From NCBI GenBank assembly GCA_012026655.1, contig JAAILG010000178.1:62001-126000 (forward strand): DNA of 64,000 nucleotides, written 5' to 3'. A program made the translations under genes and the position numbers. Every line of letters starts with the position of its first letter. The first letter of the stretch is position 1. Source of the DNA: Hydrolagus affinis (taxonomy: Eukaryota). This document shows, piece after piece, positions 24,601 through 50,262 of the stretch. The notes under the pieces were generated by a model. That model made no database searches, was not told where the DNA came from, and saw only the letters and a list, made by a program, of their open reading frames with translations.

Positions 24601-27600
24601 GTTAGGACATAAATAATGGAGTCAATGGGAGATAATTCACTCGCTTTGTGGCACAGGACAATAACATCTTGGCCTTGGACAGTTAAAGCCACTCTTCTGA
24701 TGGACAGCCAACATTGAGGCATAAATCAGTGCTGATACCTTTGAGAGGGGATCATGCAACACTAGTTTATACCACAGGTTGGGTTTAGGGAGGTGATTTA
24801 TGAAAGGTGGTTCCCGAATCCTTTCACCGGCAACTAAGACTCAAGCACCATCTTATACCTTACCACACATGGGGAAAATAGATTTGCTCTACTTATGCAG
24901 CGTTTCAAAGCATCCAGAATGTGACAAATTCTTAAACACAACCTTACTTTTGAAGACTTTCTGTAAGATCACTTAAGAAATAGAGATAACCAACCTCAAA
25001 GTTAAGTCTGAATTCAATATTTTACTAAATTCTGGATGCTCTAAACAGCCTTGGCCAACATGTGGCCCATGGGGATGTCAAGAAGCGCCCATTCCCTGAA
25101 CATTCACGTAAGTCTTAGGCAAGTTTGTGTTCCATCAGTAGTGTGTTTTCAGCTTCTTCAAGATTCAAGATGACTTCAAGATGACTTTATGACATAAATA
25201 TAGATTTTTCTGTCCCCAACAGAATCTAAGTATTATTTATTATGATGGATATGCAACCAAACAGTCTCGACCTGTGACTTAATCCTAGAATACCTGTCGC
25301 CTACTTTCACTATTACTGCCATTTTATTATTTCATTTATCCCTGTCTCGTTTTAACTGACCCTCTTGTTTTCATTAATTGTATCCATAACTGGCTAATGG
25401 ATAGGATCAAATACCTGACCTGTGAAATGGTCAAGTGTGACTTATAGCGGCATGCAAATTGCATTAAATCACATAAGATATTTTCTTATGATATCTCAAT
25501 ATTTCTTCAAATTTTACCTGCTATTAGATATTCTATTTGGTATCTCACTGGCACGATAGACATTGCATAATGTATTCAATTTTATGAGACATTACATTAT
25601 GTTCATTAGAAGTGATACCACTGGAGGGCTTTTTCCAATGGTAGTGGAGTCTAACATCAAATGTCAGAAGAATTACATGCTCCTCGCTGGTTTCCACTGT
25701 GGGCTTACACCACGTACCTGTTGAAAGCGAATAGTAATCACCATATGAGATCTGCTGCTGGTTGTGTTCCTATTAGTGGCAGCAGTGCTTCGATTTCTAA
25801 TTCCTTGTTCTAGGAAAGCCTCTAGCTGCTTATAACTAGTGCATGGAACTGACTTGAGGCACTCAACATAAAATCCGTGTCTGCCTTCTCGCACACGTAA
25901 ACCGCTGGGCTTTCGAACCTTGGACAAAAGATCTTGAATCTTCAAAATCAAAAGAATATTAATCATTAACACTGTTGGGCAGAAATGGACAGTTAAGATA
26001 TTTCTATAACTGTCACAGCTCATTTAGGTTTACATCAGCCAACCCCGATGGTTCCTTTGTTTGAACTGTCGGCTTTAAAGATCTATACTGAATATTCACA
26101 ACATGCAAGAGAAAAACAGTGTGATTTAATCAAATATTATACAAGGGATAGTCAAATTCAAAGAGGTGTTACATAGCAAAATATTGGATTATGATAGAGA
26201 GGTAATAACAGCTATGCCTGTTATTCTCTCACGTCCTCCCGATGTGAAAGGTGCTCTATAAATGTAAAACAAAAACAGAAGTTGCTGGGGAAACTCAGCA
26301 GGTCAGGCAGCATCCATGGAGAAAGGAAAAGGAAAAGAACAACACTTCTGCTTCGTCGAAGTGTTGTAGACCCGAAACGTTGACTCCTTTTCCTTTCTCC
26401 ATGGATGCTGCCTGACCTGCTGAGTTTCCCCAGCAACTTCTGTTTTTGTTTCAGATTCCCAGCATCTGTAGTATTTTGTGTTTTGCTCTATAAATGTAAT
26501 TTTGTTGTTATTATTGTAGTGGTGAAGTTCCTCTCACAGCAGAATAAAATAAGTATAGCGTGGGAATCATGCCCTAATATTTGCATGTGCTCGCCAGTGG
26601 CCAATTACTGAGTATTGCTGCAGAGATCTAAATGGTGTAACAGACCTAAGGAGATGAAAAATAAATAATTGGGAGGTGATCATGCTTTGTGCAGATTGGG
26701 ATCAGAGAGGGGGTGGATAAGCTTAGAAATATTAACATAAACCATCTAAAAATAATGCTTTCCATTGTTCACATATGCCCCTATTTGTATAATAAAAATA
26801 AAATACTAAATCTGGATTTAGACTTGGGTAAATTGGAATCACATCTGAGTAACTGCATGGAAAAATCAATACACTTACTTGTTCATTGTAGATCTCAAAT
26901 ATACTGAAATAAACCTGCAAGAGTTGACACATAATGAGTTACTGGCACTGTATTAGTGTCAAGTTAAATAAAATATGATGAGGATTCACTGCAAAGGGTT
27001 GTTCCTGCTGCTTACATGAAACTGTTTGTCCTCATTCTGATGCTGCTTAATTCCCTGAAAGAGTTCTTCACAAATCATGGGAACGAGTCCTTTGTTTCCA
27101 CCGTATCCTGTCATTGAATAGCTCTTTCCTGATCCAGTCTGTCCATAAGAAAATAGAGTTGCATTGTATCCTTTCCACGCATTCTCCAAGAGAGCTCTCC
27201 CAAGGTCACTAAAGACACGTTCCTTTGAATAATTATAACGAAAATAAATTCCTCTTCACATTTTCAAAAGCACATCACATTGTATTTTTATTTAACTTTG
27301 GGATAAGGTTTTAATCTAATAATTTAGCAAAGCCACAGTAATATTTCAAGAAACTCTTTGCAATGTTTGCACAAAATCCAATGTAATTATGACAATCAGA
27401 CAAATGTTAACTTTAATTAAGTTTATATTGGGGGAGAGATTAATAGGACTGACCTGTCCCACATATCTGCTGTGATGTCCGTCAGGCATGTAAACCCCTT
27501 GGTCGTTCTCTATATATTCGTCAGTTGACCAGTAGCAATAGTCAAAGAGAAACGTTCTCTTGTTGCTGAAGCTTTTGGGATCCACAATGGTCATACTGTT

Positions 27601-29088
27601 TCCAAGCATGGAAATTATGGATTTGCTTCTCACAGCCTTTTCTCTCTTAAACAATGACAAATGTTGACGAATTTGAAGATATTTAGTGAATACCATATCC
27701 AATTAAGGCAAACAAATGGTCAGCAACAAATAAGAATAAATAATGCCCTCAGTTCACATAATCGTATACATCACCCGAAGATCAATTCAGTATCGTTGGA
27801 TCTACCAGATAATTTATATAATCATAGGTGTGTGGGACAATGCTATGTGCAATTGGCAGCCACTTGGCACCCACATATATACAGTCAATTCACTTTACAG
27901 TGCATTCTGTAAAGCGCTTTGAGACGTGTAGAAGACGTGAAAAGTACTAAATCAAATGCAAGGATTAGTATTAATTACTGGGCAAGCATTTGGAGAAATA
28001 TTTGAAGTCATTACACACACATACAGATAGTAAGGAGTGGGAAAAAAAGCCCAGAGATCCATCAAGCTTGCTCCCTCCCCCCACTCCACAGTCCACATGA
28101 TATTCACCTACACATCTCTCCTGATCCTGGTCACTCAGTCCTCTCTTCTCTCAGAGCCCAGGGCAGGTCAAAAACTATAGAACCCCCCCTATACTCACGT
28201 AAAACAAGGAGAATTTAAAAGAAAAACATTGTACCTGGAAAATTCCCTCCTGACTCGAAAAAGCAGTCAAAGATTAAGCCACACTTTACTCTTCTTTTTT
28301 AAAACCTATGAATTCATAATGATTTTTCTGCACATTCCTGGAACACCTCAGAGGCCTCATGTGCATAGTCAATGCAAATTGCCAATAGAAAATATGCTAT
28401 GATTTATCAGTTGTGCCCAATTTTTCCCAAAATAACATTGGGCATCGAGTCCACGCTCTCTTGGGTTTAAGCTAAGTACCCTCGTCTCATCTTTGCTTTT
28501 CAACTCTGAAGGTAATACATAAATATTTGGTTTGTAATCCACACTGAGACCCTGATCTAAAACTCATCAGCATTTTTTTTAAAGAATAAAATTTAAACAT
28601 TGTTCAGCTGTCTAGGTTGATTTTTGTTTTGGATTTTTTTTCCAAAAAATATATTTGATGGTTTTGTTTCTTGCACTTGTCCCCTGTAGGAAACCACAAC
28701 ACGATTCACAACACTGCATTCTAGTTAGTATCATTTTGTACTATCTCTGCAATGAAACAGTAGTTTAATGTTGTGTGCAGCTTTCGAGATTGGTTTTGCC
28801 ACCACATTTATAATGAATACAACTACACACATGTAGAACGTTCTAATTTTTTTAAGTAGCATTCCATCGCCAAATGTTTTTACACCTAATATAGCATGAC
28901 ATTTTAATAGTTTTTAAGAATGTTTAATTCAATTCTGTGCTGGAAAATAATCACTCTTTTTAATAGGTCCGCAGTCCGCATAATGGAATTTAATGTAAAT
29001 TACACTTTTAAATATTGAAATGGAACGCACTTACCTGATTAAATGGGCGTACACGGACAGCAACTTTTATGCTATCTGCATTAAGCAT
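3489..29088 (-). CDS. KIF28: Kinesin-3 family KIF28-like motor, complete spliced CDS (24 exons, 3126 nt, 1041 aa)
   Basis: Motor motifs [11 protein letters not shown]-loop [13 protein letters not shown], switch I NTTSSRSH, switch II DLAGSER, PYRNS and LGGNSKT. These are followed by a neck coil, an FHA-like region ([12 protein letters not shown]...HAV...VIING...DRVILG) and a KIF28-type tail ([22 protein letters not shown]). All 23 introns are GT-AG and phase-consistent. Confidence 0.9.
4614..4774 (-). CDS. KIF28: KIF28-like exon 23 (...[23 protein letters not shown]...)
   Basis: 161 nt, phase 1-0, donor GTAAGA. Confidence 0.82.
5173..5335 (-). CDS. KIF28: KIF28-like exon 22 (coiled coil [19 protein letters not shown]...)
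   Basis: 163 nt, phase 0-1, donor GTTAGT. Confidence 0.78.
5497..5603 (-). CDS. KIF28: KIF28-like exon 21 (GCQEMD...SVPL)
   Basis: 107 nt, phase 1-0; bridges the phases of the two neighbouring exons. Confidence 0.75.
5945..6111 (-). CDS. KIF28: KIF28-like exon 20 (FVLYGLP...LVLQLWGLQ)
   Basis: 167 nt, phase 2-1. Confidence 0.86.
7274..7408 (-). CDS. KIF28: KIF28-like exon 19 ([22 protein letters not shown]...)
   Basis: 135 nt, phase 2-2. Confidence 0.86.
7638..7692. repeat. (TA)n microsatellite
   Basis: Directly visible. Confidence 0.85.
7779..7972. mobile_element. Palindromic MITE-like element
   Basis: Ends GGGGAGAAAATT / AATTTCTCCACC; inner arms AGAATTTGGCAAATT / AATTTGCCAAATTCT. Confidence 0.55.
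8081..8372 (+). mobile_element. tRNA(Val)-derived Deu-type SINE, full length
   Basis: Head GTAGCTCAGTGGTTAGAGCA...CTTACAA...GGTTCAATTCC, Deu-like body, L2-like tail. Confidence 0.88.
9540..9800 (+). mobile_element. Old CR1 fragment
   Basis: Degenerate [20 protein letters not shown] resembling CR1 [19 protein letters not shown]. Confidence 0.5.
10134..10262 (-). CDS. KIF28: KIF28-like exon 18 ([12 protein letters not shown]...LLPCTPSG)
   Basis: 129 nt, phase 2-2. Confidence 0.86.
10522..10667 (-). CDS. KIF28: KIF28-like exon 17 ([11 protein letters not shown]...[11 protein letters not shown])
   Basis: 146 nt, phase 0-2. Confidence 0.86.
11266..11373 (-). CDS. KIF28: KIF28-like exon 16 ([13 protein letters not shown]...[10 protein letters not shown])
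   Basis: 108 nt, phase 0-0. Confidence 0.86.
12208..12326 (-). CDS. KIF28: KIF28-like exon 15 (...[17 protein letters not shown])
   Basis: 119 nt, phase 1-0; ANxISEELxK motif. Confidence 0.86.
14033..14180 (-). CDS. KIF28: KIF28-like exon 14 ([17 protein letters not shown]...YEYFASELA)
   Basis: 148 nt, phase 0-1. Confidence 0.87.
14381..14680 (-). mobile_element. tRNA-derived Deu-type SINE, full length
   Basis: Same family; (TAA)n tail at the left end. Confidence 0.88.
14868..14991 (-). CDS. KIF28: KIF28-like exon 13 (FHA: ILDKHAV...ARVIING...QLRHL)
   Basis: 124 nt, phase 2-0. Confidence 0.87.
15321..15910 (-). mobile_element. CR1-clade LINE 3' end
   Basis: AAGAACATAAGAAC tail and AGGCCATTCGGCCCCTCGAGCCTG 3' UTR. 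The minus strand at the right end reads [14 protein letters not shown] (CR1 ORF2 C-terminus). Confidence 0.85.
17400..17586. mobile_element. Palindromic MITE-like element (same family as 7779)
   Basis: GGGGAGAAAT...AGAATGTGGTAAATTGTTGAACTCA...AATTTTCCAAATTCTG...GGAAATTCTCTC. Confidence 0.5.
17697..17757 (-). CDS. KIF28: KIF28-like exon 12 (FHA: ICTIGR...DIVLKGLG)
   Basis: 61 nt, phase 1-2, donor GTAAGT. Confidence 0.85.
18190..18280 (-). CDS. KIF28: KIF28-like exon 11 ([21 protein letters not shown])
   Basis: 91 nt, phase 0-1; motif at the start of the FHA region. Confidence 0.88.
19484..19605 (-). CDS. KIF28: KIF28-like exon 10 (coiled coil, [13 protein letters not shown])
   Basis: 122 nt, phase 1-0; kinesin-3 SWxxKL motif. 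Confidence 0.87.
20517..20659 (-). CDS. KIF28: KIF28-like exon 9 (neck: [12 protein letters not shown]...LLRDL)
   Basis: 143 nt, phase 2-1. Confidence 0.85.
21273..21638 (+). mobile_element. L2-clade LINE 3' end (5'-truncated)
   Basis: Encodes [16 protein letters not shown]...[16 protein letters not shown]...[11 protein letters not shown] (L2 ORF2 C-terminus); (GTT)n tail. Confidence 0.88.
21938..22005 (-). CDS. KIF28: KIF28-like exon 8 ([22 protein letters not shown])
   Basis: 68 nt, phase 0-2; end of the motor domain. Confidence 0.9.
23570..23681 (-). CDS. KIF28: KIF28-like exon 7 (ALSDK...[12 protein letters not shown]...LGGNSKTVM)
   Basis: 112 nt, phase 2-0, donor GTGAGT. Confidence 0.92.
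23892..24046 (-). CDS. KIF28: KIF28-like exon 6 (switch [11 protein letters not shown]...[12 protein letters not shown])
   Basis: 155 nt, phase 0-2, donor GTAAGC. Confidence 0.92.
25718..25939 (-). CDS. KIF28: KIF28-like exon 5 (IQDLL...switch I NTTSSRSH...FQQ)
   Basis: 222 nt, phase 0-0, donor GTACGT. Confidence 0.9.
26267..26483 (+). mobile_element. Penelope-like short insertion with inverted arm, tail and 16-bp TSD
   Basis: Perfect 67-bp inverted repeat 26267-26333 / 26385-26451; ~32-nt unpaired tail; direct repeat TGCTCTATAAATGTAA at 26252-26267 and 26484-26499. Confidence 0.8.
26879..26914 (-). CDS. KIF28: KIF28-like exon 4, 36-nt micro-exon ([12 protein letters not shown])
   Basis: TTGCAG acceptor, GTAAGT donor, EIYNE motif. 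Confidence 0.88.
27016..27222 (-). CDS. KIF28: KIF28-like exon 3 (P-loop [20 protein letters not shown])
   Basis: 207 nt, phase 0-0, donor GTAAGC. Confidence 0.93.
27454..27645 (-). CDS. KIF28: KIF28-like exon 2 (REKAVRSK...[11 protein letters not shown]...YVGQ)
   Basis: AG acceptor, GTCAGT donor, 192 nt, phase 0-0; kinesin-3 FxFDYxYWS motif. Confidence 0.9.
27830..27970 (+). mobile_element. SINE, 5'-truncated
   Basis: Deu-like body and 3' tail only. Confidence 0.8.
29035..29088 (-). CDS. KIF28: KIF28-like exon 1 ([18 protein letters not shown])
   Basis: ATG at 29088; kinesin VAVRVRP motif; donor CAG|GTAAGT. Absent from the ORF track. Confidence 0.88.
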
Positions 29089-29490
29089 TATGAGCTTTCT
29101 CAAGACAAATGGAGTAACAGTATCGGAAAATTGCACAATTAAAATACAGCAATGTCAGAAACTAGACTGTGAGATACAGCTGTTCAGCTTCAGGCAATGT
29201 TACTGTTAATGCATTTGGCCTTGCATCCTATTGTTGTAGTGTTTTATGCGTTGCTGTCCAAACGAGATGACCTTTCTTTGTGCGAGAGTATTCAGGTATT
29301 CAAGAGTGTAATGAGAGCTTCACAGATTCTTGTCTGAAGTTGATAAGTGACCAATCAAAACTCAGGGTCTTGTTCCCTTGACAAGTGAAGCAGCACAACA
29401 GATCACATAAAAGTCTGGTTGGTGTGAAAGATATTTAAATTTGTCATGCCTATGAACCAGCTTTGGGAGACAAAATGCTACTACTACTAC

Positions 29491-29578
29491 TAATAATAAT
29501 CCTTGCAATTGATATAGCGCTTTTCACATCTTCTAGACGTCTCAAAGTGCTTCACAGAATATACTGTAAAGTGAATGA
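29491..29578 (-). mobile_element. SINE 3' fragment
   Basis: TAATAATCCTTGCAATTGATATAGCGCTTTTCAC... Confidence 0.8.
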
Positions 29579-31510
29579 CACACAATATCATTAACAAGTC
29601 ATTTAAGATTAATTTAAATACAAAAAAAAGTTTAATGCGCCACTTTCGGCTTCTACAAAATTAATTAGGTGAGGTTTGAAATATTTAGGCAAGCAATTTA
29701 ATTATTTAAATGTCATTAATTTTTACAAAGTTCATCAATAATTTATTCAGCATCCTCTTACTGGTGGCAACCATGACACAACTTCATTTTGTGTTGAATT
29801 AAAGTTTTAAAAGAAAGGTTCTTATATCAGATTTTTATTTTGATGCTAATATATGCTCAAGCCACACTCATGTTGTGTCGCAGGAAAAGAGTTGTTGTCT
29901 AATAATTGATCCTTCCCCTACTTCTAGTCTCCATTCTCAACAACTCTTTACCCATGATAACCTTCCCTTTCGTTCTCCATGTCATCAGCATTAATATGGT
30001 TATTAATATTCTCTGAGCTTTTCTCCCTACAAATCCAAATACATTACCTGCTTTAGTCGGTCTGCCTTACTTTCCGTACTGTTCATGGTTCTTTACTTCC
30101 CAACAAGTTAGAAGTTTGGTGTACAGTATTTATTTCTCACAAGCTTTGTCCTTTCCTGATTCTCCATGCAGAAAATGTCTTCCTTGGTTGTTCTTTCACT
30201 GTCCACCCCCATGAGTGTTCATAGCAGCTCGAACATGGCTGAAATTGTAACATTGTGAAACAGAGACCATCTGATTCAATCTCAGGCCCTACAGAGTTTA
30301 ACTGGGGCATTGGGTGTCAGTTAATTTGTTTATTGAGGAATAATTATCAGTTTATGCATTCGGTGGAGTTAAATAGAACAACGTTGCTTGGATGGAAAAC
30401 AACAAGCTGTGTGTCCTAACTTTCTACATTACGGTATCCAAAAGTCAATCTATGTTTGGCAATCGTAGAAGTGGGTAAACATAAAGCATATGTTAAGTTC
30501 AGACCGAAGAATGAAAACCCAAATATTCAACCATCTGAAATTAACAGTGATTCTTTGATGACAATGACGATTTATTATTTAAGAACATTGTTTGAACAAA
30601 TTATTATCGGTGTGTGACTAGACATGCATGACTCCCGCTTGCTTCGGTCAACTAAAGAGGTACAGTCTTGTGAAAGCTTTGATGGTTGATAAGATTATAG
30701 ATTCATAGAGTTTGTGCATGATAATGAGCAGCTCATGTGTTTAATTGGTTTCTTGAAACATGTTAGGAAACACCCCATGTGGTTTAATGAATATTAATCA
30801 AACCCTCAAGAAAGAAAATCTGAAAGGCTCCTTGTTAGAAATAACATGAAGTTGAGTGAAAGGGTCAGTAAGAAAGAATTTAACAGCTCAGCAGCCATAG
30901 CTCCTATGAGTTGGTCCAAGCAGCATTGTCCAGTTCACTCTGGAGAATGGGGAGATGACTGGTATCAAGTAGCTGTCCTGTCATTGATGGTGAGTTCTTA
31001 GTTTGAAGGATAAAGAAAGTGGCACATTGCGTCAGGGTTTGCAACCATCAGCCAGGGGTTGTCAACCCAGTTACTCATTGATTTAGAAAATACTTATAAG
31101 GAGTCAAATGGATTGTAATGGATATGGAGACCTGATATTATCAGCCTTCATTAGTACAGCATCAAATCCAGCATTTAAAGTGCTGAAGCACTGAAAATTG
31201 TTAAAATCTTATTTTTTGGAAGAGGTGCATATTGGGCCTAGATTTTTTTTAATATATCTTTGAAAATGGAAGACTTAATCTGAAATAAATCATAAAACGG
31301 CCAAGTGCTCCTATAATATGACATCAGCACATAAAAATAGCACAAAATCTGGCTAATGATGTAATAAAAAATGATCAAAAACAGAGCAGTATCTGCTGGC
31401 ACCAGCAAAAGCAGCTGGCTGGTATTATTCATCTACAAATTCAATATTCTTGCACTTACCTTTGCATGAACCCATTTTATAAATAGTTTGAATAATCGAG
31501 AAGTTGGCTC

Positions 31511-31570
31511 GGGAGGGAGGGAGGGAGAGTGGGTTAGGGAGGGAGAGTGGGTTAGGGAGGGAGAGGGGGA
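31511..31570 (+). repeat. G-rich 18-bp minisatellite (GGGAGGGAGAGTGGGTTA) x ~2.5
   Basis: Directly visible; many GGG runs. Confidence 0.8.
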
Positions 31571-34500
31571 TGAGTTGAATTCATTAAATTTTATATGTGG
31601 CACCTTCAATTTAAACTCAGCATTTGTCAGATGTGAATCAATTTGATCCAGATGGAACTTTACCTCATCTCGCCAAGTTGCCCGTCCTTATAGTCTATCT
31701 TGATTAAAAGTTGATGGTCAGAAATTGCACAGATGTTTTGCCTTCATCTCAATTTGTTGACTGAGTGTTATACTCAGTGAGCAGACAGTGCTGTGATTGA
31801 AACTATAGGCTGCAGTAAGATTATGTGTCTAATATAAAAATGATGCACACAGCAGGTTATGATGAACATGCTCAATCTAATGAAAGTTCCTTATGCTGCA
31901 GTCAAACATCTATCAATTGTCTGCAAAATTGAAAAAAAAGTACTATTTAATATCTATTTACCAACTATGCACCCAATTTGGTTGGGGGGTTTTTAACTGC
32001 TGATTACGATAGTCATCAGTTACTATCACTTTCTCTCTCTCCCCCTCCCACCACACAGAAACACACACACTCGCAAAACAATACAATGATTTTAATCCAT
32101 TGGGAATCAATCAATATCCATTGACCTTCTACTTGATTGTCACCTACATACTTCTCCAACCCTGTTCCTTGATCCATCTCTGTTGCTCAGCTGGCATTAG
32201 TCTTCAGCATATCCTTCAGCTCACACATGAAGTCCTTCCGCTTTGACCATGCCTAAGGTCACTTTCCTTTTCAGCTCAGCATCAAACTCCACCCTAGTTA
32301 CAGGTTCCAAGATATTACTGCACGTTAAGGGCGCTTTAGAAATTCAAGTTGTTGAAAATGGATTTTGTAGTTCCAAGTTCTATCTACATCATCTCTAACG
32401 TCTAAACACTGGAAGTATTTTTCAGAAATTAAAAACATAATATAAAATACGTTGTATTTTACAAGTCTGGGGCAGGTTGTGGACCTAACTGATGAAAAGA
32501 TTGGACATATCTCGCTGGTGCATACTAGACCTCTGGAATTTGTAGGTTAATTTAAAATAAAACTTCCTCCCTGTATAGCATCTGAAAGTATCAGTTTTGA
32601 ACTTTGAAATTAACTTTTCCATAAGTGTTACTTGAATTTTAATCCAGCGCCTTGGGATGTTCTCCCAACGTGAAAGGCGCTCTACAAATGTAATTTTGTT
32701 GTAGTTGTTTAATCAGCGGAATTTAATCCTTACAAAAAGTGGAAAAAGACACTTTTCGTGCAGCAGGATTGACAAAAAAAAATCAATGGAATACTAAAAC
32801 CTAATCAAGGCACAAAGGAGCAGATTCAGCACAAAAGTAGACGTGAGGAAATAACCACTCTTATGTATTGATAAGCTGCTGATTTGCTTTTCTTTCAGCT
32901 CACCAGTGAAAGAAGATGAGTTGTCCCTGGATAGTTGAGGAGGTGTCATTGTCCTGACATCCTGTAGTTTGTGCACTTGTTTATTTAAAAGTTCCAGATG
33001 GTCTGTGGTTTTATAGAGAAATGGAAATGGCCACAGACGCTACAAACAAAGGCAATGATTTTGGCTCCTGTTCCATCCTCCCGTGTATTGCAAACAAGAA
33101 GATTTAATGTTTGCAGAAAGCTGCTAGTATTATTGTTCATAACAAGCCTCCTGCTATAGCTCTCGCCACGTCAGTGCTGATCAGCCAGACGCTAAAACGG
33201 ATGCAGTCATTCAAAAAAAAGTTTCAAGAAATTCAAGGTGATTAACGATGCACTCATTCTTTAACAGGGTGTCATTCAACAATTACAATCCACAGTAAAC
33301 CTGACCAGAATGCCCAATTGACCATGGTTGCAAGGTGACCCCAAGCTTAGTTGAGGAATAAATATGTATTAGGTATAGATCAGGTCCATACATCTGCAGT
33401 AAACAGCCCACCACTCAACCACACACACACACACAAACACACAAAGAATTGACGAATAAATGTAACAGCTTTTCTCCTCACTACATAAGAGGCAAAGTAA
33501 ATGCTGGGGAAGCAATGTGTGATCCGGGGAAGCAAATAATTAATCCGTGGAACACATTATCCATAGCAAGAGAGTATGATTTGGGGTCAACAGTTATTTG
33601 GTGGAAATCCTCTGCACCCACACACACACTCCACCACCATTGACGTATAAATGGGGGTGGGTGGCGGGGTGGAAGAATTCAACCCATAGATTCTAGAGTA
33701 ACCACTGCAATGTGGCGACAAGAGTGTTGTTGCTAGGATATAATTTGATCTTGATTAACGATGTGTATCAGGCTTCTTTCATAGTGTTAAATTTGATTTG
33801 GAACAACAGTGATACAGTGGATAAGACAATATTCTTCCCTTATGTTCCAGTCCCAGAAGCTACTGTTTTGAATGCATCTTTGATCATCATTGTGATCAGA
33901 TGACTACCTGTATCTATATAATTACTGTGGTGATAAAAGGGCTCATAGTTTCATTACTCGGCTCCAGGGAGTAGATTGAAACATCTGCAACCTTGAAAAA
34001 CACAAACATCTTTCTTCAGATAGATGCTCAGACATTTCTGCAATCCCAATCATTTTGCACAATTCATATGCAACACATTTCAAATCCTCCTCCACCTCAA
34101 ATGATCCTACCTGCACATCAGCTCAACAACCATGGAAACTCCTCCCAGTGCAAACCAATTCATTCAATCCATCCCACCCGACTCTCAATATCTGGTTGTT
34201 TTATAAATCGGCGCACCAACATTCTTGATTTACTTTTTGCCCACTAAAGTCATGTACGGTTTGAAACCCAGTGTAAAAGAGATTAGGATGATCATGGACA
34301 GTGACAGCTATTCACAGAAATGAATGGCATGGTGACATCAGATGGAACAGAACTTTGCATTTGTTCAGCAGCCATGATTCGGAGGAGCTCTTGGCTGCTC
34401 GGAGGTTTGTAAATCTCCCAGTTGGCCGATGCCAATTAGAAATCGGCAAATGCCAGCTGAGCAATTAAAAGGAACGAGCAAGTGGTGTTCATTATATAGA

Positions 34501-37500: not shown

Positions 37501-37922
37501 TTAATCAAACCATTGTACAGATAAATGAGTGCGTTTTCCTCCAGACCCTGCATTTCATCATCAAAGGAGAAATTACACTTTACAAATAGTGCCAAACTAG
37601 TTAATAAATATAACATGTCCAACTGCGACCACACAACCCGCATCAAATAATTCCAGCACAATGTAATGTGTTATATCCACCGTCGCTCGTTGATCTTTTC
37701 AAATGTGTTTGGTTTTGCCAGCGATTCCTGCTGCTTAGAGTGCCATCGGGTGGCAACTCTGGTAACAACATGAGAGAAAACGGATATACAGTATGAAAAG
37801 GTGAAGCAGCACCTCGATGGGAGCACTGCACCAAGCAGAGACTTCCCAAGCGAAAAACAAAAGGAAATCTTTATGCCATTTGGTAGCATTTGTCTTAAAC
37901 TCACCTGCAGTCTGAAGCCCTC

Positions 37923-37972
37923 ATACACACATTCACAATACACACACACACACACACACATACACATACACA
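37923..37972. repeat. (CA)n microsatellite
   Basis: Directly visible. Confidence 0.85.
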
Positions 37973-38447
37973 GTCACTGCACTTTACAGTGTATCCAGTG
38001 CTGTGCTTCGAAACAGCCTCCCAACCTGAAAGGCGCTATACCAAATGTCAGGATTGTTATTACTAGACATTCGTGGTATTCGCCACTGAAACGTACAGCA
38101 GGTGAAAGGCGAGATGTAACTGAGAGATGTGTGACTTACTTCTACACTGCAGGTGCCTCACAGCACTGCTGCTGCTGCTGCTCCCGCCAGTCCTGGTTTC
38201 AGGAGGATTGCTGGGACCCACCTGGAGAAGTGGCTTACATCAGCAACTCCCAAAGCAGCTTTGTGCTGAGGTCAGGAATACTGTTTCCAGAGCTCACTGG
38301 CCTCCGCAGAGCCTTCCTCAAATCGCAGATAAAGTCCGGTCGACAGTAAATCGGCACTTTATTTGTGGGACCCATGAATGCAGCCGTCAGTCAATCTGTG
38401 CAATTTACCTGGTGGATTGTAGGCCAGGACACGGGAGAAACTCACTA

Positions 38448-38544
38448 TTTATATCTGTATAATCTATATACAGTATATATATACACACACCTATACACAC
38501 ATATATATATACATACACACAAACATATATATACTGTATATATA
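38448..38544. repeat. Compound (TA)/(CA) microsatellite
   Basis: Directly visible. Confidence 0.85.
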
Positions 38545-39725
38545 GTGCTGTGGGATTTTTAACATCCATCTGAATAGGCAGTGGAGCCAGTACCGGCGTG
38601 TTTGGACCAAATTCCACAACTACTTCATCAGCAACTCTGGAATTATCAAGGCTGCTCCTTAGTAATATGAATATCCCCTTAGTCATGTGCTCCAACCTTA
38701 CTTTGAAGCTAAGTTTCCTAGCTGTGTAAAGCCTCAATCTTAACCAATCACCGCATACTCGTGAAACATCCATACAGATTTGCCGACGCCGCAGTTTACT
38801 CATCGAAGTCGTGTCACTTGGTGTGCAGAGTGCAAGGTTATTCTAGAAATGCATTGATGAATTTTGCATTGCAACAGTTCAGAGTAGCAACAGCCGCAGG
38901 AACCAGCCCACTTAAAGCTGCGGAACAGGCCTTTGAGCATCATAATGTTATCAGTCGGTTACTCTGCCTTCAGCAAAATGATGTCAGTCTCAAGCTGCCT
39001 TATTACAGGTTCACTGCAGGCACTGTTATCAACAGCAGCGCTTGATTGCATCATGTAATCAGGGGAGTTTGGGAGAACTCGGCATCAAGCAGTTTCTAAC
39101 TGAGTTGCAGCATCTTGAAATATGAATAAAATTGCCTATTGCAGCCCTGAACTTGTGCATTTTCTGTGTTACAGCCTCCGGTTTATCTTAAAGTACTGCT
39201 CTGGTCTTAACAATAGCAGAAGCAACAGTGTTCAAGAATTTTGTCAGGAAACTACATCAATAATCCACGAAAACAGCAGGAGGCGAGGTGATGGTCAGCA
39301 GATTGCACGCCCACTATTTCAGAGGCTCTGGAATTATCAAGGTTGAGAGTTAGCATCAGGAGGCTGTGATGCTGCAGAACGAATGGTTGACTGTCGATTC
39401 GAATTTATGTAAAACACAACTACAGGAGCTGCAAAAAAAAACACGAGCGTGCAAATGCATCAATGTTACTTACCATTAAAAAAAAAGCTTTGTTGGGAGT
39501 GCAGTCACGGTAGGCCTACATCTATTTTCCTTAAACGGCTGCACCATAATAATACTTGCATTTGATATAGAGTCTCAAAGTGCTTCACAGAATATACTGA
39601 AGAGTGAATTGACTGTGGGTGAATCCAGGATGCACATACACACACACACAGGGGTAATGTACTCTCCAGAGGACAGAGGGCTTCACAAGGTAGAAGAGAA
39701 CAATAGCAACTTGTATTTATATGGT

Positions 39726-39955
39726 AAACAAAACACAAAATACTACAGATGCTGGGAATCTGAAACAAAAACAGAAGTTGCTGGGGAAACTCAGCAGGTC
39801 AGGCAGCATCCATGGAGAAAGGAAAAGGAGTCAAAGTTTCGGGTCTACAACCCTTTGTCAGAATGTTTGTGGAATACTGCTGTGTGCAATTGGCTGCCAT
39901 GTTTCGCCCACAAATATACAGTCAACCTGCTGAGTTTCCCCAGCAACTTCTGTTT
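39726..39955 (-). mobile_element. Penelope-like short insertion with captured SINE segment and 15-bp TSD
   Basis: Same sequence as the 26 kb copy on the opposite strand; TTGTATTTATATGGT at 39711-39725 and 39956-39970. Confidence 0.8.
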
Positions 39956-40205
39956 TTGTATTTATATGGTGCCCTCCACTTGGGGTAGGAGCACTGAAAA
40001 ATGACATAGTTTGACACCAAGACAGGGACATTAAGGGAGGTGACCACAAAGCGCTATCGACGATGAATGTCTTCAAGAGAGTTTGCTGGGTTAGCTACCC
40101 AAGAATGCACTGCAAATCTACTAATAATATCATGGGATGCCTTCAGCAAAGATGTCAGTCAGCCCTTTGATCTGCCAGCCCACTTGCATCTGTAGCAGGA
40201 ATACT

Positions 40206-40489
40206 ACTTGTATTTGATATAGCGCTTTTCTCGTCTTCTAGACGTCTTAAAGCACTTGACAGTGTATACTGTAAAGTGAATTGACTGTATATTTGTGGGT
40301 GAAATATGGCAGCCAATTGCACACAGCAGTATTCCACAAACAGCCGTGGATTGAAAAGTTCAATTTATTTTTGTTTTTTTTCAAGGGATTATTATCAAGT
40401 ATGTGGAGGAAGGAAACTTGCCCAAGGTTTCAACTTGCCAGGAATTGAAACCAGGTCTCTCGCTTGCAAGACGGGTGCTCTAACCACTG
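40206..40489 (-). mobile_element. tRNA-derived Deu-type SINE, near full length
   Basis: Same family; carries the diagnostic GGAATACTG variant. Confidence 0.85.
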
Positions 40490-41987
40490 GAATCATGGTG
40501 GAAGCAAGACTACAAGGAAAGGGAGAGCAGGAAGATACAAACAAAAGTTCCAACTCTCCTTACTCCTCTCCCTCCAACCTTGAGAAGGTTAAACAACTAC
40601 ACCAGTTGGGCTGAAGTACACGTTTAGTTCAAGATGTAAATACTTTGACCGCTCAGATAAGATCAGATTCAGTGCTTTACACAATGATAATGTGTGCCCT
40701 GAGGTACAGAAGAAATGGGAAAGGTTGCAGTACTTACAAGTAGTCTGCTCTTCCTCATTAATAAGACCTGAAATGGCACAACTTTGCATCTCCAGTTCAT
40801 ATTTAATAACCCGTTATTAAATCTATTACTCACCACTCACAATCGCCTCAAGGTGATCTTCCCCCATTTAATCCACAAAAAAAATACATTCTGCTTCTTT
40901 GGCTTTGTCCGTCCGTTTGCCCCTCTCCCCCCTCTCTCACATCCCCACCATCCGCTCCCCACTCACCCCACCCTAGAAAACTTTCTGTTTTAAAACTGCT
41001 TCATGTGTTAGACTGACTGCATCTGACAGCAGTTAACACTTCATCATAATTTTTTAAACAACACACTTCCCCCTGCCCCCACCCCTATCACCAGTCACAA
41101 GCAAATTCACACAAGGAGAGTTCGAGACCTCCTACCTTTATATTCTTAGGTGGAAAACAAATGAGAAGTCAGCCTTAAATAAGCTTAATGGAATCAAAGC
41201 TGTTTGCACCATGGATTTATGTAAAAGAACTGTTGCAGGCATTTGAACAATGCAGTAAACTTCCAACGTAAGCAACTAACTGCTCCATTTGCAGGCATGT
41301 AATATTCAAATGTTTCTGTGCTTAACGATTGAATTGTTACCTCCTTGGCACCTGAACAAAAATCGCCTCATTTCTGAACTGTTGGTTTTCTTTTCTGATG
41401 TAAATTCCGGGCACTCTGGAGACTGGTACATTTGCATCACCAGACTGCACAATCCGTCTGACACACGCACACAAAAAAACATGCAAATTGCAGGCTTTCT
41501 GCATCTAAAAAAATGGGGGGGAAACCACAAGAAAGGCAGAGATTGCAAGGCAGAATTTTAACGAGCGGACAAAATTTATTTTAAGTTAATCATCCGTAAA
41601 AATGTTAATCGACTACAGCTGTACTTAATTATTAGGCAATTATCTGACTGACGATACATGGCATGAAACAGACTGAAACTGCTTTCAGGCTACACTTACT
41701 CTTCTATCATCAATCCTTTCAGTTACGGGTCTTGATTTTGGTGAAAGAAGGACCCACGTTGATGCTTGGGAGCAGATTCCATAAATCTGGGCAGCAAAGC
41801 GTGGCGTTCCCGACTGTGGCGGTATCCTCTTGTCTGCAACAGAGTTAAACGGTACATTTTTTGCTGAAAGATTCAGGGAGGAAGCAGGACAACTGCTGCT
41901 ATAATTAGTCTTTTCTATATAAAACACACTATAAGAAAGAATGCTACGAACTTTTATCAAAGTGGTTCGAAAATAGAATAAGAAAAA

Positions 41988-42140
41988 CAATAATCCCTGT
42001 ATTTGATATAGTGCTCAACAACAACAACAACAAAATGACACTTGTATAGTGCCTTTCATGCTTTATTACGTTTTTGAGACGTCTCACAGCACTTCACAGA
42101 ATATACTGTAAAATACGTTGACTTTGTATTTGGTGGGCAA
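41988..42140 (-). mobile_element. SINE 3' fragments with an internal (CAA)n tail
   Basis: Family tail sequence interrupted by CAACAACAACAACAAC. Confidence 0.6.
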
Positions 42141-43941
42141 AATAATAGTCATCAAAGGAGCTTTGGGACTCGTTGGGGGTGGGTGGGCAATTGTCATAGT
42201 TTGGAGCCACAAGACTGATTTATTTTGCCTTCCCCACCCCCCCCCCACCCACACAATATTTATATCACAACCCTTCAAGGAGATAAGTGTCTCGGAAGCT
42301 TAACAGTAGCAGGGCCCAACGCTGAGACGTGGGAAGGGAGGAGGTAATCGTAAGCACAGTCGAAGAAGATGTTCAGTCATGATATAATAGTGAGGAAGGA
42401 GGGGAAAGACTTGAGGGAGAGAATTCCCAAGGTTTGGAGTACAGTGACTGAAAGCTCAGCAGCCGATAGGACCACAGGATAAAATATTTGACGACAATGT
42501 AGCAGCACAAAGTATTTAGGATGATACCATTAGACGATATTAGCCATGTTCCAAAATTGATCGTTAGACTAAATGACACTTATCAGGGGTGGGGGAGAAA
42601 GAAACAGACAATAAATGCACCTTAATCTCCCATTAATCTAATTGAGCATTTAGTAATAATTCAGTCTCCTTTTGCTAATTCTGCCGATCACACTTGCTCT
42701 AATCAGGAGCAATCTATTACCTTCATAATTACACTCCTAGAAAATGTTCATCTCACAATGAGAACCAGTTGGAAACAGATTGCTTTGCAAAACAGAGGAT
42801 TCCTTTCTGCTTCATGTTCCGAAACATCAGACTTTTTAAAGCACTCGAGTGAGGTGTAAGCACCCAGGATAGGAGACTGCAAATTCCCTGAACATAGACA
42901 TCCTGTGAATGTGTGCTTAGCAATTAATTACATTGCTCGGTAAATAGCTTTTCCTTCAAAATGTGAGAAATATTGGGATTTTTTCCATCAAAAAAAAAGG
43001 TTTTGCTGGCATCCAATCTAAGGCTGCCTGACCCTCCTGCCCAGTAGAATAAGATGGACCTGAGTTTGTTGCAATGTATGACAACTGATAAATGTCAATC
43101 TGTCCACCAGCTGAGCCCACTCCCTCACACCCGGTGGTCTGAGACTCAAAGGGGTGGCTGAACCCGACTGACATTAAACACATCCAGCTGTGTTGCTGCA
43201 GCAACTCAACCCCACCCCCCCACTCCTCTTTATTTGTGATTTATTCACAATGCACTGCACAGACATTAAGCCCAGATAACCCTCATAGGGGAACTGTGCT
43301 GACAATGTTGGCAATGTGACAATGTCACTGTAGAAAAGCCCTCACCAGTTACAAATTGTTTCTCTCTGAAAATGAAATCGACAAAACAAAGCTGATGGAA
43401 TATTTATATGATTATTTTAAAAGCTAAGATTTGTAGTTTTTATTTTAAATAGCTTCCCTTTCCTATCACACGCACGCACACACACAAGCTATTCATCATT
43501 ACAAGTGGATTAATAGTTGCCGCTCGAGGGAGAATGCTTAGGATAACTTAAAAACTGAATATGCAACCTGTCTCTGACTCCCCATCCCTTGAGATAGCTA
43601 TCATTATAGGTGGACCACCAATCCAGAGCAACAGCATATCTTCAACACTGTACATGTCACTTCAAATACAAATGAGCTGCTCTTTTCCTACGACTTCAGA
43701 TGCGCATTTACGGTTTGGTAACAAATTACCATTTGTAAGTGGTTTAATCGGATTAGCCTACCACTGCAAGGAGATCTACCGGCTCCTCAGTTTATGCAAC
43801 ATAAGGATAATAATAATCCTTCTATTTGATATAGCGCCTAATCATGTCGTTGAGACATTTCAACGCGCCTTAAAATGCAGACTTTTTCATTCTTCTTCAA
43901 AAAGAACAGAGTTATGGCCCCCCCAAGCTCAAATCACAGGC

Positions 43942-44170
43942 TAGAAATTTCACCTGGGCTTAGCCGCTAAGACAATTGCACCTTTAAAATTCAGGATCTC
44001 ACAGAATTGTGGAAAATTCTTAAATTTAGTTCCAAAAGACTAAAGATTATAATTTAGGGATTTCCATTATTCAACACAACCAATTTTAAGACAATGTTGT
44101 CTTACAGCACAGGAACAGATAGAATTTGGAGTCTCTGGAGCCCCCAGATTTACCTAGAGATTTCTCCCCT
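43942..44170. mobile_element. Palindromic MITE-like element (diverged)
   Basis: AGAAATTTC...AGAATTGTGGAAAATTC...GATTTCTCCCC. Confidence 0.4.
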
Positions 44171-44633
44171 CATCCTTTGACCACCTTTCCTCCCCATGTA
44201 GAAAGCTTCTTTCCTCAACGTTAGGCTGAACTCTAGTACTCTGCAGCGATATCAATTATAGAAATTCAGAGTGGTGCACATCAGGGGAGTGTTATCTGTA
44301 AGAGTGATGGATTGCAATTTCAAACTCATCTGAAAAGATAGGACCACGTTTATTTTTCAGATGGGATATATACCGTTGTAACCTCTGAAATTCCCCTCGC
44401 TCTCTCCTTCCCTGAATGCAGTGACTACTGCTGTGTATAGTTTCTCAAGCAGCCCTTTGATAGCTCAGTCAACTGGATATTTTTCCTTGCGCAAATCCAA
44501 ACTAAATTGAATGCTGCTGCCAACATCACCACTGCAAGACAAGCATTTGATATGTGTGGTACAAAGTCATTCTGAAGCTCAGGAGAGCTTGCTTAAATCT
44601 TAGTGCCGTTTGTTTCAAGATATTGCATGATCA

Positions 44634-44935
44634 ATAATAATAATCCTCGAATTTGATATCGCGCTTTTCACGTCTTCTAGACGTTCAAAGCACTTCACAG
44701 AATATAGTGTAAAGTCTAATGACTGTGTATTTGTGGGCAAAACATGGAAGCCAATTACGCACAGCAGTGTCCCACAAACAGTCGTGGAAATGACCAAGTT
44801 ATTATTGTTGTTTTTTTCTTGAAGGATTATTATCAGACATGTGGAGTAAGGAAACCTTTTTCACGGTTCAGCCCTGCCAGGAATCAAACCCAGATCTCTC
44901 GCTTGTAAGGCGAGTGCTCTAACCACTGAGCTACA
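44634..44935 (-). mobile_element. tRNA(Val)-derived Deu-type SINE, full length
   Basis: Anticodon-like stem CTCGC-CTTACAA-GCGAG retained. Confidence 0.88.
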
Positions 44936-45432
44936 ACCACACAAGTAAAGAGCGAGCTTTGGGTTCTTCTTGCAGTTTCAGCTTTGCAACGATCGGCTAA
45001 AGGCACCATTCAGGGAACAAAAGCCGATGGACATGAAATATTCAGCGGTCATGGGCAGCAGGGGGATAAAGAGGAAGCTCCTCTTAGCTTTGCGTAACTC
45101 TCCGTAGAATGTATGGAATGTGTTGTTAACTGATACACGCTGTTGGGGAGAGGGAGGGAAAGAGGGAGGGGAGAGAGAGTTCCTGGCAGCCATTTCTAGA
45201 GCAACATAGTAATTGTACCATTCAGTAATGGCTTCGTTCTTTATTAAGGATAATAACGCACTGCTGATGATGATGATTATGTACAGTCTAATAATTTAGC
45301 TCAGGAGTTCTTTAGCAGAACTACAGCGAGAGGATAATGTGGCCTGGCAATGATGATGCATCTCTCAGATACCCACGGGGTTTAAACCATTTGCGCAGAG
45401 TACCAGGCCCTGAACGACCATTCATATTTATT

Positions 45433-45580
45433 ACAAAAACAAAAGTTGCTGGCGAAGGGTTGTAGACCCAAAATGTTGACTCCTTTTCCTTTCTCCATGG
45501 ATGCTGCCTGACCTGCTGAGTTTCCCCAGCAACTTTTGTTTTTGTTTCAGATTCCCAGCATCTGTAGTATTTTGTGTTTT
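45433..45580 (+). mobile_element. Penelope-like short insertion with 20-bp inverted arm and ~12-bp TSD
   Basis: ACAAAAACAAAAGTTGCTGG (45433-45452) is inverted to 45526-45545; ATTCA(T/C)ATTTAT at 45420-45431 and 45581-45592. Confidence 0.78.
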
Positions 45581-47462
45581 ATTCACATTTATAATTCTGA
45601 TTCACAAACCCCCGCCATGTCCCATTTCCTTTCTCAAAATTGGATGCTGGCACCTTTTAAAATGAACTCTATCCAGTAAGAGACTACATGTTTAACAATA
45701 TCGTGCGTGAGGAACCAATTGCGCTCAATGTGCGCAAAATTAAGCATCACATCCACAAATCAACAGCAAATAAGCACTTAGCAAAGTGTTTCTCAGAAAC
45801 GAATGTTTTGGTTCAGCATTTTACAGTGTTTTAAAGTCACCCCTGGAAATTTACAGCCAGCGGCACCAATTTTTTTTTCCTGACTCAACTTTAAGCGTTG
45901 AACATTTAAAATAACACACTCAATTTAAAAAAAGGAAGGCTGTAAAATAAGGATTAGGCATTCTGAATTGGTCAGCAGTTGTTACTGATTCGGGATTTTT
46001 AAAACAATTATTATTTTTACTTAATTTTATCTAACGTATAAAATTATGTCTTTCACAAAGTACTGTAGTGGGCTATTAAGGGTAATATCCTAATTTTTAC
46101 CAACCCCAGGCTTAAAACATGCTCTTGGCTGGCAGCCAAACAGTACATTAATGGCAAGGATGTACAGTATATTGGTATAACAGTACAATCTATTAAATTA
46201 ATTTTGTAATGTTTCACTGATAAAATTTTGCAAGGCAACAGAATTCTATTTCACATCTGGCACCCAAGTCTGATTCCAGATCAGATTAATGGGATTTAAA
46301 TGCAGTTTGCAGCCTCACATCCATAAACAGAGCCTGGATGAACTGAAAGCAACTGCCCCAGGCTAACAGTGTATTGTGTAGAAAACCACCCGCTCAGTTA
46401 TATGGTGGGAACTGAAGCCAATGTGGAAAACAATATCATTATTGTGCTTTTATGAGCTTTTCATTAAGAGACAGTACAGGGACACACTATTTTATTTTAT
46501 TAGGGTTCACTCAGCTCAGAGACAGTCTATTAGAGTCTATTACCTTGTCCTCACTCTCTATCAGCTGTGAGAGAGGTCCTGGCAGCTGCTGAAATCTGAT
46601 TCCTACACTGAGTATAAACGTGCAAGAATACTATTTGCAAAATTTATCCCAGAATGATGTAACCCACCTTTGCGTAAGGGTCTGTGCTTCAAATCAGTTC
46701 AAAGACAGTCCAGTGCAAAGAGCAACTAAATTCGCAGCTGAATTTGAAAATTTATTTACCACGTAAATTTATTTATCACTGCAATGAGAAATACAACTAC
46801 TACAAGGTAAGCAAAAGGGCAGTTGCAAAGTTAGACCTTAAGGTGGACAGCTGGAGAGATTTTGCGATACTATTTAGGACCTCAACCTGCCCCTTCCATA
46901 AAACGTCATCACGTTTTAATGTCTTGTGAGTGCACTGCTCTGCCTAGTTTGTCAAGTTGTTTGCATTTTGCCTGCAGAGCTTAAAAACTCAGTTCGCTGA
47001 ACCTTGTTTGCAGCCTTAAATAATTTAGCTGATCTAGGGAGATTAAGAAACTAATAAATAAGTCTATTGTGGTAGCACGATTCGCAGTATTACGTTTGCC
47101 TCAGAGCTTAATTTCCAGATGTTGTGTATATTAGTTGAATATATTTAGTGTGTACTATTATGTTAATACTCCTGGCACTTTTCAAGTTCCCAGATGCCAT
47201 TTACTATTCTCTGTAATTGGTAAAAGTGATTATGATTACTTATCACTGTGTAAGTAATTAAAAGTAATCGACAAAAATCAACATAATTTCTTGTTACATT
47301 GCACAAAAATAAATTTAAAGTAAAACAATTCTCTCCACCGGGACCCTTTTCCCCTTCCAAATTTTGCAGTATTTTGATTTATTACAGACATTTAATGCAG
47401 GTCTGTATGTTATATTTACGGAGGAAAACATGATTTGTTTCATTTACTTGTTGAAGCAAGTG

Positions 47463-49788: not shown

Positions 49789-50262
49789 CAACAACAACTT
49801 TGATTTATATAGCGCCCTCCACACCGGACGACGTCTCAGAGCGCTTCACAATAGTGGATCCTGGGACCGAGCCAGGGGCAGGGGTAGAAAGGTGACCAAA
49901 GGCGCGGTCGAAGAGAAAGGTCTTTAGCTGGAACCTGAAACTGAGAAAAGAAGGGGCGAGGCGAAGGTAGTGAGGAAGGGAAAGTACGGCTGCTGAGGGT
50001 GGAGCGGAGGATTTGGGGGACATGGAGTAGGCCAGACCCAGTGGAGTGAAGGCAACGGGAGCTGGTTTGAGGACAGAGGAGGTCAGAGAGGTAGGGGGGT
50101 GCAGAGGAGTGGAGGGATTTGAAAACAAGGGTGAGGATCTTGAAGTCGATCCTCTCAGGGATAGGGAGCCAGTGAAATTTGGCAAGGACTGGGGTAATGG
50201 GGGAGTGAAGTTTGGTGCGGGTGAGAATACAGGCGGCAGAGTTTTGGATTTTACGGATTGTG
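49789..50262 (-). mobile_element. L2-clade LINE 3' end
   Basis: Encodes IQNSAACILT...ITPVLAKFHWLPIPERIDFKILTLVFKSLH; same family as 21273, with a ~30-bp internal deletion. Confidence 0.88.

Follow-up and report, generated by a model that had tools for sequence, protein, structure and literature searches.

Inverted-pair insertions of a Penelope-like retroelement family in Hydrolagus affinis point to probable priming of both target nicks on one RNA

Introduction

Endonuclease-bearing (EN+) Penelope-like elements insert as a characteristic unit, comprising a pseudo-long terminal repeat (pLTR), an adjacent inverted and 5′-truncated copy of it, a tail of 30 to 40 bp on one side only, and a target site duplication (TSD) (PMC8557442). 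For instance, Pen2a_Av has a 31-bp tail and a 9-bp TSD (PMC3846280), a 34-bp repeat was described for Penelope (PMC2377424), and the layout of inverted arm, single tail, and TSD is also in print elsewhere (PMC8969392). The origin of the inverted pLTR and of the one-sided tail is called undefined (PMC8557442, PMC11167929). In vitro, the anole Poseidon protein cuts and extends both strands, with reverse transcription starting at two internal sites that bound the tail; the protein is predicted to be a dimer, hammerhead cleavage is not needed, and the steps after the start of reverse transcription are left open (PMC11167929). Here, we analyzed a 64,000-nt stretch of the Hydrolagus affinis contig JAAILG010000178.1 (positions 62,001 to 126,000; assembly GCA_012026655.1), referred to as the window, which carries three short hairpin-shaped insertions, together with copies of the same family across the genome. 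The three inserts are fossils: short noncoding end pieces (pLTR plus a 34-nt tail) of a Penelope-like retroelement that encodes a reverse transcriptase (RT) and a GIY-YIG endonuclease (EN), and such copies are predicted to be dead on arrival. They are ordinary in themselves, and their value lies in the family statistics bearing on mechanism. On these statistics, twin priming with a single RNA as template is preferred to dual priming from two RNAs, and fold-back of the first cDNA is nearly excluded.

Shared with the published EN+ units are the overall layout, the length of the tail, a TSD of variable length, a pLTR that carries a hammerhead motif, and the occurrence of solo pLTRs. The family differs in that most insertions consist of the pLTR module only and that the TSDs are somewhat longer (9 to 16 bp). 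In the published descriptions of EN+ units the tail is optional, and their accounts of the layout come without counts of pairing, allele sharing, or 5′ ends. The features in common with anole Poseidon are the two internal starts bounding the tail, the cutting and extension of either strand, the AT-rich targets, the limited primer-template homology, and the dispensability of hammerhead cleavage, whereas Poseidon belongs to another clade and has no cysteine linker. As the in vitro work on Poseidon is presented, the inverted copy is unexplained, and use of different sites by the two strands on one RNA is not demonstrated there. We found no paper stating a one-RNA, two-site model for Penelope elements, Repbase, Dfam, subscription literature, and supplements being outside that search.

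Two fixed ends and one of each in the core-sample pairs

Positions in the element are given as e coordinates, counted from the last base of a 32-nt tail pattern (e0), with negative values upstream in the element sense. In the 1.11-Gb genome, exact matches numbered 1,297 for the tail pattern and 3,327 for a 25-nt core pattern, whereas neither reversed control had any. The family is large, and three copies in 64 kb are a dense but ordinary sample of it. Two sets of copies were tabulated. The tail sample consists of 100 of the 1,297 tail matches, taken in contig order. The core sample, which was not selected for the tail, consists of 93 of the 100 listed core matches, in 76 loci; the 7 matches at the end of the list (contigs C205 to C217) and five overlapping twin loci are not part of it. 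Locus L114 was omitted from pair and end counts as a duplicate of L113, the set of 87 pairs leaves out L126, L159, and one more locus by the arm-end filter, and L089 was scored as solo by the script despite a short tail-less arm.

The copies showed three regularities. First, an inverted partner was present at 54 of the 100 tail sites and absent at 46, and a TSD of 9 to 16 bp (score of 9 or more) was found at 67, compared to 1 of 100 with a swapped flank. Second, arm length ranged from 20 to over 300 bp, and the outer end of the arm lay within −38 to −26 in 73 of 87 pairs. Third, the core sample comprised 48 inverted pairs, 14 solo tailed copies, and 14 solo tail-less copies, the last being up to ∼715 nt or more long, and all 48 pairs consisted of one tailed and one tail-less arm (binomial P = 7 × 10^−15 at 0.5). 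Solo copies show no preference between the two ends, so with independent choice half of the pairs should be same-ended; none is.

Two sets of loci, L005/L006 and L113/L114, are duplicate segments in opposite orientation on one contig, the former 100% identical over 1,632 nt and the latter with the same layout and TSD. Each is either a recent inverted duplication or an assembly artifact. A solo tail-less copy ∼450 nt long (L257) lies on the contig of the window, ∼30 kb before it.

Probable twin priming on one RNA

We think it probable that both target nicks prime on one RNA at two fixed sites, the cDNAs usually running off its 5′ end. The endonuclease would nick both target strands 9 to 16 bp apart, and each 3′ end would then prime reverse transcription on the same RNA, one at the tail end and the other ∼34 nt upstream. 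The two fixed element ends would correspond to the pair of RT start sites described in vitro for the anole element. Since priming would be internal and near the 5′ end of the transcript, the cDNAs would run off where transcription starts, ∼134 nt upstream of the end of the tail. Overlapping arms would require strand displacement by the trailing RT, and this may explain why, of the two members, the tailed body tends to be the shorter. The two cDNA ends, being of the same sense, would be unable to anneal and would be joined by microhomology or templated fill-in, through polymerase theta-like repair or RT jumping, with neighboring DNA captured once (copy 2, below). All of the mechanism is inferred from fossil copies in one fragmented assembly; the ORF (open reading frame) link, the TSDs, the two fixed ends, the one-of-each pairing, the allele sharing, the 5′ pileup, and the junction fillers are seen in these copies directly.

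We also lean slightly toward a broader proposal, namely, that Penelope-like elements normally integrate by programmed twin priming: a dimer would nick both strands, each of two fixed start sites on one RNA would be used once, and internal priming in the upstream pLTR would yield a 135-nt cDNA of strong-stop type that runs off at the start of the transcript. If true, one scheme would cover the inverted pLTR, the one-sided tail, the solo pLTRs, and the long TSD. The family counts also lead to sharp predictions for the in vitro system already in use: each strand would take one site, each event one RNA, and run-off would occur at the cap. The twin or dual priming described for L1 (PMC2837659; bioRxiv 10.1101/2024.08.27.596794) is similar in that both nicks prime, an inverted 5′ segment lies within one TSD, and microhomology or filler is found at the join. 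However, the second site in L1 is opportunistic and the join usually comes with a deletion or small duplication, whereas here the second site is fixed, about half of the insertions are inverted, and the arms overlap by up to ∼100 nt or more.

Alleles shared by arm and body

Arm and body were concordant at 259 of 284 sites for five diagnostic non-CpG alleles in the 87 pairs. Shuffled pairs gave 54% concordance and never exceeded 64%, and none of 5,000 shuffles was as high as observed. The result was replicated in 36 later pairs (105 of 115 alleles concordant), and rare variants common to arm and body numbered 6, compared to 1.1 expected. CpG sites were discordant, in line with the decay expected there after insertion. 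Arm-to-body divergence averages 4.4% at non-CpG sites and serves as each insertion's own clock. The original prediction had reasoned that the arm was copied from the same molecule as the body because both arms of the copy at 45 kb carry a private variant, AACTTTTG. This reasoning was wrong, as the variant is unique within the window only; it is a common subfamily allele carried by 44 of 91 sampled bodies. The claim of one template itself holds, backed by the family-wide concordance and by the spacer of copy 1, which contains that copy's own rare base (found in 1 of 67 bodies).

The lengths of the pair members are also informative. Both members were longer than 145 nt in 6 pairs, compared to 0.9 expected, and a long member was never paired with a run-off member (0 compared to 7.2 expected; P = 5 × 10^−5). 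Therefore, one and the same pLTR copy seems to have templated both cDNAs. It would be either the upstream copy, where the RNA start sets a limit, or the downstream copy, where there is no such limit.

The leading alternative is dual priming on two RNAs, in which an asymmetric complex would hold two transcripts of the same donor, each subunit being limited to one start site; the transcripts might possibly be paired via the palindromic stem III of the minimal hammerhead. In this scheme the overlap of the arms needs no strand displacement and the 3 of 65 pairs that look like two subfamilies find a place; dual priming has already been proposed for L1 (PMC2837659), and in amphibian repeats, hammerheads whose helix III is weak work as dimers (PMC7229834). 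However, independent RNAs should yield the missing pairs of long and run-off members as well as same-site pairs (0 of 48 seen), and extra rules are needed for both absences. Furthermore, some bodies consist of the tail alone or of little more and lie directly against a long arm (L111, L092, L260, and L148), as expected after a collision on one RNA. We therefore consider two RNAs unlikely as the usual route, with perhaps one chance in a handful of being right.

Several points weigh against a single RNA. One of the 54 arm-bearing tail sites (L159) is a complex three-part insertion with a tailed inverted partner. The 3 of 65 pairs mentioned above are discordant at both linked sites −72/−71, where they show another subfamily's pattern, all in one direction; a minority of events probably use two RNAs or two templates. 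Allele concordance alone does not discriminate between one RNA and two RNAs of one donor. The in vitro work on Poseidon saw the same start-site use on both strands, pairing on one molecule being outside its scope (PMC11167929). Long palindromes may be underassembled in a fragmented assembly. Finally, no pileup of read ends was seen at the start site in one poly(A) single-cell RNA run, which is poorly suited to this and is not evidence on this genome.

5′ ends and the short size of the copies

The 5′ ends of the bodies cluster: 38 of 99 fall in the 10-nt bin from −137 to −128, compared to 13 and 5 in the neighboring bins, and 75 of 174 pair members end in this bin. The boundary is the A of CCAGT, at −134, a motif that we take to be initiator-like. 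The pLTRs linked to an ORF begin at −133, at −136, or further in, and none begins upstream of −136 (11 loci with 8 independent flanks, 4 of the loci sharing one flank). In Drosophila Penelope, this region holds an internal promoter that includes an initiator (PMC2377424), and a promoter of this kind was suggested for a rotifer pLTR (PMC3846280). We infer that the short size reflects run-off at the transcription start after internal priming. Hammerhead cleavage was rejected as the source of the 5′ ends, only 3 of 99 lying around the predicted cut. The ORF start had low sense-strand depth in one raw RNA run, which is not evidence on this genome.

For size only, another explanation is that the ∼135-nt units come from a separate short nonautonomous RNA, similar to a short interspersed element (SINE) or a retrozyme, which would be compatible with twin priming. 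Most sampled copies are indeed short (13 of 99 bodies exceed 147 nt), and solo units would keep the internal promoter if the element has one, as Drosophila Penelope does (PMC2377424). We find this source rather improbable, since the short units carry the same alleles and the same 5′ boundary as the ORF-linked pLTRs, the 100 tail sites include no head-to-tail arrays, the 5′ ends are not at the hammerhead cut, and the anole protein requires RNA downstream of the start sites (PMC11167929), which solo units lack. Of the origins first suggested for the three inserts, a Penelope-like element or its nonautonomous derivative, the link to the element is retained, and a separate nonautonomous family is not needed for the short size. 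The non-LTR retrozymes (PMC7229834) are alike in being short hammerhead-bearing animal repeats with long TSDs. They form tandem units of 170 to 400 nt with canonical hammerheads, whereas here the motif is minimal, the units are single or head-to-head, and the ends are not fixed by the cut site. This assignment was rejected.

In a fold-back of DNA, the first cDNA would self-prime, copy itself, and jump to the top-strand overhang, which accounts for the shared alleles and for short palindromic junction fillers. The arm could not then outreach the body, yet in 38 of 87 pairs it goes beyond the body by more than 10 nt on the 5′ side (in 16, the body is the one that reaches further), so simple fold-back is excluded. 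Later trimming of the body would be needed in ∼40% of events, and the stop of the arm at the same place as the ends of the 14 solo tail-less copies is left unexplained. This route is largely refuted and very improbable. The "self-made" arm of the original prediction accordingly fits when read as the product of one RNA, not as a DNA fold-back. A miniature inverted-repeat transposable element or other DNA transposon, which terminal inverted repeats with a TSD could suggest, is refuted by the arms of 20 to over 300 bp, the 9- to 16-bp TSDs, the one-sided tail, the 46 armless sites, and the linkage to RT and GIY-YIG; neither fixed terminal inverted repeats nor a fixed short TSD was seen among the 100 tail sites, and the Penelope-like origin first proposed is upheld.

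Folding of the pLTR plus tail is no more stable than that of shuffled sequences (z scores of −0.6 and −0.7). The predicted fold (39726 to 39868, minus strand, and L184:1085-1230) would pair the tail with the middle of the pLTR and place both start sites in unpaired U-rich stretches. In RNA run X7, 37 reads from 23 starts span the arm-to-body junction at L184:1085-1201, and hairpin copies are transcribed inside host RNAs of that run's organism.

The parent element

Walking 5′ from the best matches of the unit in search of a coding partner, we found a pyrimidine-rich 3′ untranslated region (UTR), then a GIY-YIG frame, and then an RT with DKG and YIDD motifs, so that extension in this direction did uncover the partner ORF that a Penelope-like origin calls for. 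Longer copies (L061 to L064) have the order N terminus, RT, linker, GIY-YIG, 3′ UTR, and unit, and Pfam RVT_1 and GIY-YIG matches lie in one reading frame linked to the unit. The Penelope-type RT motifs PADKGG and YIDD are present in L062, L063, and L064. Homologues of the RT piece carry RVT_1 with PF28514/PF26215, some also with GIY-YIG, and the closest named one is an uncharacterized bamboo shark protein (63% identical). All four ORF copies that were translated are broken by stops or frameshifts, and no intact ORF was found among the copies read. A further search with the N-terminal region gave 30 loci, in 11 of which the unit, together with its tail, stood immediately upstream of the ORF; it lay downstream of the ORF in most of 30 EN-bearing loci, and a 5′ truncation series was also seen. 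Judged by sequence, the unit is the pLTR plus tail of a roughly 3-kb element.

In family copies, the pLTR starts with a minimal hammerhead (CUGA-N-GA, a 4-bp stem II, GAAA, a palindromic ACGU stem III, and stem I), an anatomy that we assigned on the assumption that the hammerhead consensus applies; the predicted cut site is after e−102. The presence of RT plus GIY-YIG, DKG/YIDD, pLTRs at both ends, an inverted copy plus tail, a variable TSD, and the hammerhead motif places the element among the EN+ Penelope-like elements. Copies L061, L063, and L064 have a C-x4-C-x2-C linker before the EN and CxxC...H...H within it. The Neptune clade is defined by a CX2-5CxxC linker and a CCHH motif (PMC8557442), and by the linker and CCHH motifs alone the element would be Neptune-type; Nematis also has a (reduced) linker. 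The likeness to the Neptune clade (PMC8557442, PMC3846280) thus lies in the linker that joins RT to EN and the CCHH in GIY-YIG, and the difference is that no microsatellite targeting was seen in the TSDs here. The family is a new member of its class, and both the class and the insertion layout were already known.

An older relative of the element, 77 to 84% identical, is present at L063:1484-2038. A ∼1.2-kb internally deleted form (L175, L184, L187, and L172) consists of a pLTR, tail, ∼1 kb of the ORF start, and a tail-less pLTR; several of its copies share a flank, so that part of the count is segmental duplication, and L172 has its own flank.

Three insertions in the window

The three units with arms, tails, and TSDs of 16, 15, and 12 bp are real and lie where they had been placed. 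Their parts are as follows.

26252-26267: copy 1, left TSD, 16 bp
26268-26333, minus strand: copy 1, inverted tail-less arm, 0 differences from its own body over 65 positions
26334-26356: copy 1, junction filler, 23 nt
26357-26484, plus strand: copy 1, body, made up of a pLTR whose hammerhead motif is truncated and of the tail (∼26450-26484)
26484-26499: copy 1, right TSD, its first base common to tail and TSD
39711-39725: copy 2, first TSD, 15 bp
39726-39863, minus strand: copy 2, body, tail (∼39726-39764) and then pLTR up to the 5′ boundary of the family
39864-39924, minus strand: copy 2, filler of 61 bp at the junction, repeating SINE sequence from close by in inverted orientation
39925-39959, plus strand: copy 2, tail-less arm in inverted orientation, 35 bp, matching the body at all 35 positions
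39956-39970: copy 2, second TSD, overlapping the outer arm end by 4 nt
40281-40342, plus strand: likely donor of the copy 2 filler, inside a tRNA-related SINE copy
45420-45431: copy 3, left TSD, 12 bp, 1 mismatch
45433-45452, minus strand: copy 3, inverted tail-less arm, 20 bp
45453-45580, plus strand: copy 3, body, made up of a pLTR whose hammerhead motif is damaged and of the tail (∼45546-45580)
45581-45592: copy 3, right TSD

The bodies are 93 to 98% alike in the window comparison, arm and body differ at 0 to 1 positions, and the TSD pairs are identical at 16 of 16, 15 of 15, and 11 of 12 positions for copies 1, 2, and 3, respectively. All three arms end ∼33 to 34 nt before the tail end. 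The partial inverted copies described earlier were confirmed, except that the arm of copy 2 is 35 bp and not ∼30. Two features had been overlooked, namely, the likely source of the copy 2 spacer, described below, and a minimal hammerhead motif that each body carries at its 5′ end; in copy 2 the motif spans ∼39828 to 39863 with changed core bases. A Rfam scan of the window gave no match to a hammerhead family, and the three copies have damaged cores. A Rfam match to MIR1507 (43.8 bits, compared to a gathering score of 73) is the copy 1 hairpin and was rejected.

Junctions and fillers

The two alignments overlap at 34 of 87 joins, mostly by 1 to 6 nt, and a filler of 7 nt or more is present at 27 of 87, many fillers repeating the element's own 5′ stem region. 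Overlaps and fillers at joins are signatures of alternative end joining or RT jumping. In the copy 1 filler, 10 nt are the reverse complement of that copy's own 5′ end, including the rare base. The copy 2 filler is 60/62 identical, in inverted orientation, to 40281-40342, compared to 88.5% for the best other match in the window. It has a 37-nt exact match in its own flank, compared to 24 nt in the best of 20 control flanks. The donor lies ∼320 bp beyond the insertion, and the two differences are CpG-to-TpG changes in the donor. By this comparison the filler appears to be a clear case of local capture of neighboring SINE DNA. Flank-templated fillers were rejected as a general rule, as only copy 2 of the 27 fillers clearly matches unique flanking DNA.

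Target sites

The TSDs had a median length of 14 bp with an arm and 12 bp without (n = 40 and 32; P = 0.011) and were AT rich (72% compared to 60%). Both nick flanks share the same bias, A rich and T poor. Primer-template homology averaged 1.4 nt, compared to 0.8 by chance. Obligatory primer-template pairing was rejected, the signal being weak; this comparison leaves out 26 of 66 tail junctions, which had nonmatching bases, and 6 of 36 arm junctions.

A tRNA-related SINE is present in ∼10 copies in the window (e.g., 14388-14680 and 40195-40500). Of 72 insertion sites of the Penelope-like element, 11 lay in this SINE, compared to 52 of 720 control positions (P = 0.02). Within the SINE, a single 30-nt stretch was hit at 6 of 72 sites, compared to 3 of 720 controls (P = 3 × 10^−5, for a bin picked after seeing the data), and is a possible target hot spot. 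The 3′ pieces of a repeat resembling a long interspersed element (LINE) lie at 21274-21638 and 49788-50124 in opposite orientation and are 91 to 95% alike. Copy 2 is inserted in the end of a piece related to these, its TSD being situated within the end of the LINE-like repeat (family D19).

Other features of the window

A splice-acceptor-like pyrimidine tract ending in CAG is located at 26440-26454 on the plus strand, exactly at the arm end or upstream start site of copy 1. An intron lies in the 5′ UTR of Drosophila Penelope (PMC2377424). The poly(A) single-cell RNA run, which again is not evidence on this genome, showed no spliced joint at the CAG tract. Two exon-bearing minus-strand frames of a kinesin motor gene (25673-26023 and 27346-27702) flank copy 1, with a Pfam match for the frame at 25676-26023 only and not for that at 27346-27702. 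At the start of the window, a minus-strand frame at 77-427 is without a Pfam match and resembles what is presumably the first exon of a TMEM179-like membrane protein.

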